From assembly GCA_035911175.1 (NCBI GenBank), contig JAMHWA010000067.1, positions 22,784 through 86,783 on the forward strand: a stretch of 64,000 bases of DNA, given 5' to 3'. This document shows, piece by piece, positions 30,437-30,502 of the stretch. The stretch comes from Alphaproteobacteria bacterium (GTDB lineage: Bacteria; Pseudomonadota; Alphaproteobacteria; Rickettsiales; UBA3002). The translations under genes were made by a program, and so were the position numbers. Below the pieces are notes generated by a model. It worked only from the letters and a program-made list of their open reading frames with translations. It had not been told where the DNA came from and did not search any database. Positions within the stretch are counted from its first letter, which is position 1. Each line of letters begins with the position of its first letter.

Positions 30437-30482
30437 TTGTCACCAAACTGTCATCCATTCTGTTCCGTTTGTCTGGTATTAT
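30437..30482 (+). promoter_or_regulatory. Pho-box-like repeat plus extended -10 (site b, archetype)
   Basis: TTGTCAC-CAAA-CTGTCAT (30437-30454), then 22 nt, then TGG-TATTAT (30477-30482, overlapping TATAAT at 30480-30485), then AGGAG and the ATG at 30503. Confidence 0.5.
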
Positions 30483-30502
30483 AATCAGATAGGAGCAGCC
30501 AC

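Follow-up and report, generated by a model that had tools for sequence, protein, structure and literature searches.

The 64,000-nt stretch of an uncultured alphaproteobacterial chromosome analysed here (contig JAMHWA010000067.1, positions 22,784 to 86,783; hereafter the window) carries four copies of a tandem direct repeat of the Pho-box type. As claimed in an earlier note on this DNA, all four face orphan genes, in which we found no Pfam or NCBIfam family except for a PG_binding_1 domain in one of them. We consider it probable, at about 0.6, that a PhoB-type response regulator co-activates a type IV secretion system together with lineage-specific candidate substrates. Because the same site precedes the secretion operon of relatives as well as many fast-evolving orphans, the genes behind it probably form a single co-regulated group of candidate secreted proteins. 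The link of the box to type IV secretion is a new element, missed by the earlier note: the repeat arrays found upstream of virB2 in relatives alter what the regulon most likely means. The box belongs to the Pho-box sequence family but departs from it in two defining features, namely its position and the function of its targets.

The sites in the window are listed below; the sequences and coordinates of sites A to D, together with the AGGAG at 30492-30496 and the ATG at 30503 that follow site A, proved to be those given previously.

Site A, 30437-30454, plus strand: Pho-box-type direct repeat TTGTCACCAAACTGTCAT (TTGTCAC-CAAA-CTGTCAT)
Site B, 17153-17170, minus strand: TTGTCAC-AAAA-CTGTCAC, exact match
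Site C, 41169-41186, plus strand: TTGTCAT-CAAA-CTGTCAT, exact match, without a -10 element at the distance typical of the class
Site D, 27076-27093, plus strand: TCTTCACAGAACTGTCAT (TCTTCAC-AGAA-CTGTCAT), one half-site degenerate
Candidate fifth box, 24088-24105, plus strand: CCGTCAT-TAAA-GCGTAAC, degenerate, upstream of an HTH_31 regulator gene

The exact motif TTGTCAY-N4-CTGTCAY occurs three times in the window against 0.01 expected, and three or more copies were found in 0 of 100 shuffles; with up to two mismatches allowed, there are seven matches, site D among them, against 1.02 expected. Pairs of the form TGTCA-N6-TGTCA are confined to sites A, B and C, where the spacer is CAAA or AAAA and the two repeats have the 11-bp period of a Pho box, and a position weight matrix built from the four sites retrieves no further window match above 12 bits. 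All four sites lie within the approximately 9% of the window that is non-coding (chance about 6e-5). Their flanks have nothing in common except the box and the -10 element, and these unrelated flanks rule out a miniature inverted-repeat transposable element or another longer repeat around the boxes; neither an RNA element nor a tRNA was found near them. The closest structure to the RpoB encoded in the window is PDB 7ye1 (2121 bits against about 1794 for the runner-up), which we take to be the Caulobacter RNA polymerase, and the organism is therefore an alphaproteobacterium. Cyanobacterial boxes (RpaB/HLR1, NtcA, SphR) were ruled out, with HIP1 absent and RpoB alphaproteobacterial. The claim that no box stands in front of a housekeeping gene holds only with orientation counted: the boxes point at orphans, but the intergenic DNA that holds site C also lies upstream of rpsF, a divergent gene (40685-41074, minus strand). 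A further repeat at 49274-49290 (minus strand; TTGTCAT-AAA-CTGTGAA), upstream of a GGDEF gene (48136-49200, minus strand) and 24 nt from TATAAG, has a 10-bp and not an 11-bp period; it is weak and probably no site.

The clade to which the organism belongs comprises uncultured alphaproteobacteria represented by "Rickettsiales bacterium" metagenome-assembled genomes (MAGs) with a GC content of about 55%. Homologs of the fadD-like protein that are 70-83% identical to it carry the names "[Rickettsiales bacterium]" or "[Alphaproteobacteria bacterium]" (MAG proteins), and via these homologs we obtained the syntenic loci L147-L152 (the prefix L denotes loci retrieved in this work), across which gene order is shared with the window. 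A scan of one genome per species for ATTGTCAYMAAACTGTCAY yielded at least 118 loci, 23 from the clade (MAGs, GC 0.50-0.60) and 95 others. Elsewhere in Proteobacteria, 24 of the first downstream ORFs (open reading frames) behind the same 19-mer fall into one cluster among the matches listed, a cluster that includes the Pfam-confirmed PstS of L098; other genes behind the 19-mer encode PhoB-like regulators (L097, L057), ppk (L014, L112), a long PstC and a porin. This company identifies the 19-mer as a canonical PhoB operator, beyond the "Pho-box-like" of the earlier note, and by its letters the window 18-mer is the canonical proteobacterial Pho box.

In order to reach the orthologous secretion regions of relatives, we used the neighboring ridA gene. 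In L032, L153, L154, L155 and L156 we found arrays of three to four tandem repeats upstream of virB2. The array in L032, which gave the first lead, reads TTGTCAT-AAAA-CTGTCAT-AAAA-CCGTCAT-AAAA-TTGTGCT and is followed after 10 nt by TACGGAATAATCG, shortly before a gene cut off by the end of the locus; in the other four, the array ends 10 nt before a TAC-type hexamer. The genes behind the arrays of these four encode VirB2 (TrbC), VirB4, VirB6 (TrbL), VirB8, VirB9 (CagX) and VirB10 (TrbI), to which the operon of L156 adds VirB11 and the coupling protein VirD4; thus, the chromosomal type IV secretion operon of the clade has a classical multi-box Pho promoter, and the orphans have a two-repeat form of it set one turn upstream. 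L032 and L150 are parts of the same MAG, and L150 is syntenic with the window (fadD 83% identical), while L153 and L154 come from the same MAGs as the boxed orphans L070 and L086, so the repeat is common to secretion genes and scattered orphans within the same MAGs (L070, L086 and the L150 context). A reverse-oriented box adjoins the virB2 array, either upstream or within 12 nt, at 7862-7879 in L032, 7686-7703 in L153, 1863-1880 in L155 and 9844-9861 in L156; box and array together comprise as many as six repeats in divergent orientation, which could serve divergent transcription toward ridA or extra cooperative binding.

The genes faced by the boxes in the window, and one neighbor without a box of its own, are the following.

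Site A target, 30503-30832, plus strand: 109-aa orphan ending ...LCKSPTR, no Pfam family
Neighbor of the site A target, 30900-31223, plus strand: 107-aa orphan ending ...ICSSKQR, without its own box, no Pfam family
Site B target, 14843-16999, minus strand: 718-aa protein rich in Ala, Glu and Gln, with one PG_binding_1 domain and a 5' untranslated region (UTR) of about 120 nt
Site C target 1, 41288-42001, plus strand: 237-aa orphan ending ...KSATR, no Pfam or NCBIfam family
Site C target 2, 42127-42804, plus strand: 225-aa orphan, no Pfam or NCBIfam family
Site D target, 27128-27820, plus strand: 230-aa all-helical orphan ending ...FSRHR, no family

No target in the window has a known domain of the pst, pho, phn or ugp kind expected behind a Pho box. 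One family of clade proteins, about 195 aa long (MALFGN..DYTKTG), has the box in front of its genes in at least eight genomes or contigs, namely L123, L124, L127, L133, L134, L039, L070 and probably L008. Arginine is found within the last three residues of 29 of the 41 box-associated ORFs (e.g. ...CKSPTR, ...CSSKQR, ...KSATR, ...SRHR, ...KSPAR, ...KPRSR), and after collapsing of families the proportion is 17/29 against 6/47 for other window proteins (p = 6e-5). The Arg-ending set includes the window genes starting at 30503, 30900, 41288, 27128 and 50312 and box-associated ORFs in L008-L153; a small family among these C-termini ends in C-x(2-6)-R. A positively charged C-terminus is the transport signal of the VirB/D4 system of Agrobacterium. 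The enrichment is consistent with the orphans being secretion substrates, and the C-terminal arginine may be a secretion or processing signal.

Analysis of the DNA downstream of the boxes reveals a promoter geometry that is shared by three of the four sites.

Site A extended -10, 30474-30482, plus strand: TGG-TATTAT (TGGTATTAT), 22 nt after the box
Site A overlapping TATAAT, 30480-30485, plus strand
Site B extended -10, 17126-17134, minus strand: TGC-TATAGT (TGCTATAGT), 21 nt after the box
Site D extended -10, 27113-27121, plus strand: TGC-TAAAGT (TGCTAAAGT), separated by 22 nt from the box and by 6 nt from the ATG

An extended -10 of this kind (TGn followed by TAnnnT), with which a -35 hexamer is dispensable, is present at A, B and D and missing at C; it is conserved in L129 and L147. 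Since TGnTAnnnT occurs only 97 times in the window on both strands, its coincidence at a fixed offset of 21-22 nt behind three of four boxes has p ~1e-8. A promoter scan found no -35 hexamer on the correct strand, the lone promoter-like match in the region being on the other strand, and a standard -35/-10 promoter was ruled out. The box thus ends 21-22 nt before the -10 element at A, B and D and not about 10 nt before it, as is usual for a Pho box, which overlaps the -35 or takes its place. The spacing that the earlier note had pointed out is real at these three sites and specific to the clade, and does not extend to site C. In the genome scan, among the matches listed, TAnnnT stands 10 nt after the box at 24 of 95 non-clade loci, in agreement with the spacing in S. 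meliloti and E. coli. At 21-23 nt it is present behind 10 of the 23 clade boxes but behind only 3 of the 95 others (p = 2e-6), which makes the 21-22 nt class a clade trait; the shift upstream amounts to exactly one 11-bp repeat unit, i.e. one helical turn. The canonical spacing of about 10 nt is also present at some promoters of relatives (L148 at 5382, L153 at 9941, and the secretion arrays). The transcript from site D is predicted to be leaderless, and this layout of 27128 is kept in L147, L148, L151 and L152; other box promoters of the clade with a leaderless layout are those in L151 at 6235, L148 at 5382 and L010. At site D, TTGTTAC was considered as an additional repeat in phase with the box and dropped, as it is not conserved in L147 or L148.

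Comparison with orthologous promoters shows that boxes persist while the surrounding DNA changes. A metagenome scan for the box followed after 18-19 nt by TGNTANNNT returned 24 loci, including L129, which carries the ortholog of site B. The two are identical over the box at 30 of 30 nt (CAATTGTCACAAAACTGTCACACTTCTTTT) and retain the -10 element (TGCTATAGTGCA), although they differ in the central part of the spacer and the DNA upstream cannot be aligned; the adjoining acyl-CoA dehydrogenase is 91% identical, against 23-41% for the ortholog of the site B target. Site D has counterparts in four of the syntenic loci:

Site D in L147: TCTTCACAGAACTGTCAT, 18/18 identical, 22-nt spacer, -10 TAGTGT, 6 nt to ATG
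Site D in L148: ACTTCACGAAAATGTCAT, 22-nt spacer, -10 TATAAT, 5 nt to ATG
Site D in L151: TCTTCACCGAACTGTCAT, 22-nt spacer, -10 TAAAGT, 5 nt to ATG
Site D in L152: TCGTCATCAAATTGTCAT, 22-nt spacer, -10 TAAAAT, 7 nt to ATG

The layout of 22 nt, -10, 5-7 nt and ATG is therefore common to five genomes including that of the window, and it always precedes the positional ortholog of 27128, at a protein identity of 29-31%; in L149 and L150 the gene and the box are both missing. L152 carries an exact box (12061-12078) where the window has site A, i.e. between the gene of an outer membrane protein and that of the fadD-like protein; it faces a 107-aa ORF ending ...LCKAAKAPTASVPKKK. The 18-mer of site C recurs without change at 6274-6291 in L147, in front of a 72-aa orphan; no ortholog of the site C promoter itself was found. 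All boxes with at most one mismatch in L147-L152 lie in or at the edge of intergenic DNA and face an ORF (in L148 the box extends into the 5' end of the gene as called), and these ORFs have no Pfam domain, except for one HTH_31 gene. Two proposals of the earlier note are thereby supported: its check for conservation in front of orthologs is answered by sites B and D, kept while their flanks diverge, and its inference of one regulon is strengthened by the canonical Pho-box sequence and these footprints, the four boxes being of one type and, as far as their letters tell, operators of OmpR/PhoB winged-helix proteins.

Two observations at these promoters concern other elements. In the 5' UTR of 14843-16999, at 17072-17044 (minus strand), there is a block AAAGTTAAAATGTTAACGAATTGTTTACT with the inverted repeat GTTAA-N4-TTAAC, near-identical in the 5' UTR of L129 despite diverged surroundings; this block may act as an additional operator or as part of the RNA. 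The L149 ortholog of the degenerate box at 24088 reads CCGTCAT-TAAA-CTGTCAT, followed at the canonical 10 nt by TAAAAA, and stands before an HTH_31 gene; another gene of this type, in L010, has an exact box in front of it, and a regulator cascade is possible.

We propose that the box would serve as operator for a head-to-tail dimer of a phosphorylated PhoB-type regulator of the OmpR/PhoB family. At A, B and D the dimer would lie at about -52 to -35, on the canonical face of the helix and one turn (11 bp) upstream, and would recruit RNA polymerase to a sigma-70 promoter whose lack of a -35 hexamer would be offset by the TGn extended -10, while at the secretion operon two dimers would occupy the canonical and the upstream positions. 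Such a regulon would be clade-wide, comprising the virB/virD4 operon and fast-evolving domainless genes inserted between housekeeping genes, and the window orphans would be members of it and, among its genes, those most likely to encode secreted substrates or accessory factors. The likeliest regulator, in our view at about even odds, is the genome's own PhoB, in which case the regulon would be linked to phosphate limitation; a PhoB-derived paralogue has a smaller chance, since any conventional PhoB would bind perfect consensus boxes.

Several points weigh against this interpretation. The promoters of the secretion operon were observed in relatives only, not in the genome of the window, where a similar promoter is presumed. 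The arginine enrichment was noticed post hoc, on ORFs called in the same analysis, and all transcription starts are predictions from sequence. Site C does not share the geometry of the class: no -10 element stands at 21-22 nt, and the best TAnnnT is TAGGTT at 18 nt. No genes for PhoB, PhoR or Pst were found in the window or in the clade loci examined. The syntenic histidine (PAS) kinase at 25071-27023, beside site D, was rejected as PhoR because it scores 159 bits, far below the 334-bit cut-off of TIGR02966, and its likeness to PnpS/PhoR is weak. The Pho boxes of S. meliloti lie 22-25 nt from the transcription start (PMC3616915) and structural models for E. coli imply a strict spacing between box and core promoter (PMC10294691), so that activation by PhoB from 21-22 nt is only conjectural. 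The sole phosphorus-related operon found with the 21-nt geometry is phnT2U2, on metagenome contigs with a GC content of about 0.43: in L125, L126, L132, L136 and L144 an exact Pho box between phnS2 and phnT2-phnU2-phnR is followed by TACCAT at 10 nt and by TGGTATAGT at 21 nt. We dropped these promoters as proof that PhoB can act from 21 nt; they do not settle the spacing question because TACCAT also stands at the canonical distance, and they may have two alternative -10 elements one helical turn apart.

The strongest competing explanation, although in our judgement an unlikely one, is a dedicated OmpR-family regulator other than PhoB, similar to VirG or PmrA but with PhoB-like specificity. With a secretion system and orphans but without phosphate genes, the regulon is similar in content to those of PmrA and VirG, and placement of the box at -43 is non-canonical for PhoB; on the other hand, a PhoB, if present, would bind perfect consensus boxes, so that a paralogue would need to coexist with cross-talk. 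The window encodes a possible candidate at 49716-50285, an atypical Trans_reg_C protein without a recognizable receiver domain, which the earlier note had put forward. It is translationally coupled to a small membrane ORF (49348-49716, 122 aa, one membrane helix), which overlaps its start via TAATG, and is followed by an orphan ending ...IPCR (50312-50983); the three genes may form a module. Nothing points to this protein as the regulator: its winged helix is generic for the OmpR family, the PDB entries that it matches best are those of MtrA and RegX3, PhoB being about equally weak, and there is no box upstream of it. In PhoB the arginine of the wing motif VRGTGY inserts into the minor groove of the A-rich spacer; by our reading of the sequence, the protein has glutamine at this position. 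That it reads the boxes is very improbable.

Still less probable is an ordinary PhoB/PhoR phosphate-starvation regulon, in which the orphans would be lineage-specific phosphate-stress proteins and the motif in the secretion operon would carry no message about secretion. Its appeal lies in the identity of the motif with the Pho box consensus and with the boxes at pstS, phoB and ppk elsewhere, in the origin of the relatives from lake and other environmental metagenomes, and in the classical multi-box Pho layout of the secretion promoter. Against it, among the matches listed, genes of the PstS cluster follow 0 of 23 unbiased clade matches compared with 24 of 95 elsewhere (p = 0.004), and none of about 50 clade boxes examined precedes a recognizable phosphorus-scavenging gene; the control by phosphate starvation considered in the earlier note is not supported. 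In addition, the targets evolve very fast and differ among close relatives, which fits interaction proteins better than nutrient-stress proteins.

Finally, the notion that the repeats are not regulator sites at all, and instead chance, remnants of small mobile elements, or the -35 of an alternative-sigma promoter, can be dismissed almost entirely: the boxed genes do look recently inserted and a 56-nt duplication flanks the site A gene, but the four flanks are unrelated outside the box and the -10, the boxes are kept at orthologous promoters while neighboring DNA diverges, the -10 is a sigma-70 extended -10 whose 21-22 nt gap is unlike the 16-18 nt of a -35/-10 spacer, and chance accounts for only 0.01 copies.

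The window is otherwise an ordinary chromosome, with secA, aspS, argJ, dnaB, rpsF, fabD/G/F, folD, ahcY, beta-oxidation genes and rpoBC. The sole matches to 30503 come from two Logan contigs that belong to the same organism, and the gene is absent from the relatives L147-L150, while 30900 has a positional ortholog in L149 (25% identity). Paralogy of 30503 with 30900 or 41288 was rejected, as BLASTP is not significant and the likeness of the C-termini is by eye only. A 56-nt direct repeat (30827-30882 and 31218-31273, 94.6% identical) flanks 30900, with the first copy behind 30503 and the second at the 3' end of the fadD-like gene (31220-32899, minus strand), and suggests that 30503 with its boxed promoter arrived by tandem duplication or recombination at that spot, where relatives contain no small ORF or a single one. 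In L147 (1880-2287) and L151 (4015-4932) we also found polymorphic-toxin genes of the Colicin_E5/Phage_Mu_F type with small downstream ORFs, which occupy variable slots between housekeeping genes that elsewhere hold boxed orphans. For 27128, a word-based search of 5.8 billion proteins returned no homolog, and its positional orthologs were found via synteny; a single-sequence AlphaFold2 model reached a predicted local distance difference test (pLDDT) score of 46, insufficient for a fold search.

In function the element most resembles the PmrA regulon and the VirG/vir-box system. Among the known systems, the PhoB regulon (pstS, phoA and phoB of E. coli, S. meliloti, Caulobacter) shares with the clade the two 7-bp (C/T)TGTCA(C/T) repeats with a 4-bp A-rich spacer and an 11-bp period, promoters without a -35 hexamer, multi-repeat arrays that in the relatives end 10 nt before the -10, and a 19-mer identical to that at enterobacterial pstS promoters. 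It differs in that the boxes A, B and D end 21-22 nt and not about 10 nt before a -10 with TGn extension, in that orphans and a type IV secretion operon stand in place of phosphate-acquisition genes as targets, and in that PhoB/PhoR were not found in the loci examined. The PmrA system of Legionella pneumophila and Coxiella burnetii (Icm/Dot) is similar in having a winged-helix regulator, a tandem direct repeat at a fixed distance to the -10, and an element common, in the clade as seen in relatives, to secretion-apparatus genes and scattered fast-evolving genes of unknown function. However, it belongs to Gammaproteobacteria and to type IVB secretion, whereas the system here is of the VirB type (IVA), and binding and translocation have been determined experimentally there but are predictions here. 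The PmrA repeat is of the TTAAT type and differs from the present box. It has been reported that PmrA, a winged-helix regulator, activates about 40 effector genes of Legionella (PMC6989116), and a passage of the same paper, citing Zusman 2007, presents the PmrA motif as usable for effector prediction.

VirG of the Agrobacterium Ti plasmid, BatR of Bartonella and BvrR of Brucella are alphaproteobacterial regulators of the OmpR/PhoB family that govern virB and translocated-protein genes through a common upstream element, as is proposed for the clade. The virG gene of A. tumefaciens is reported (Winans 1990) to respond to phosphate starvation, and the vir box has a 12-bp consensus, TNCAATTGAAAY, of which sites A and B have no more than CAATTG (ccCAATTGTCAC). 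The occurrence of CAATTG before several boxes here is a partial likeness; in contrast to the VirG system, no virA/virG pair was seen, and the operon here is chromosomal and adjoins ridA.

An operator common to orphans and a type IV secretion operon provides a list of candidate secreted proteins, from sequence only, in an uncultured clade whose members are probably host- or prey-associated and whose orphan genes could not otherwise be grouped; the PmrA element has had the same use for listing effectors in Legionella and Coxiella. The clade also constitutes a natural experiment, in which a PhoB-type activator would act one helical turn upstream in combination with an extended -10. More tentatively, the PhoB/Pho-box module may have been rewired from phosphate scavenging to interaction with host or prey, such that the regulator would switch on VirB/VirD4 together with a large set of fast-turnover effectors bearing an Arg-ending export tail, and a box followed after 21-22 nt by TGnTAnnnT would predict effectors from sequence alone where culture is not possible. 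Should PhoB itself be the regulator, this lineage would deploy its secretion system in response to phosphate limitation.

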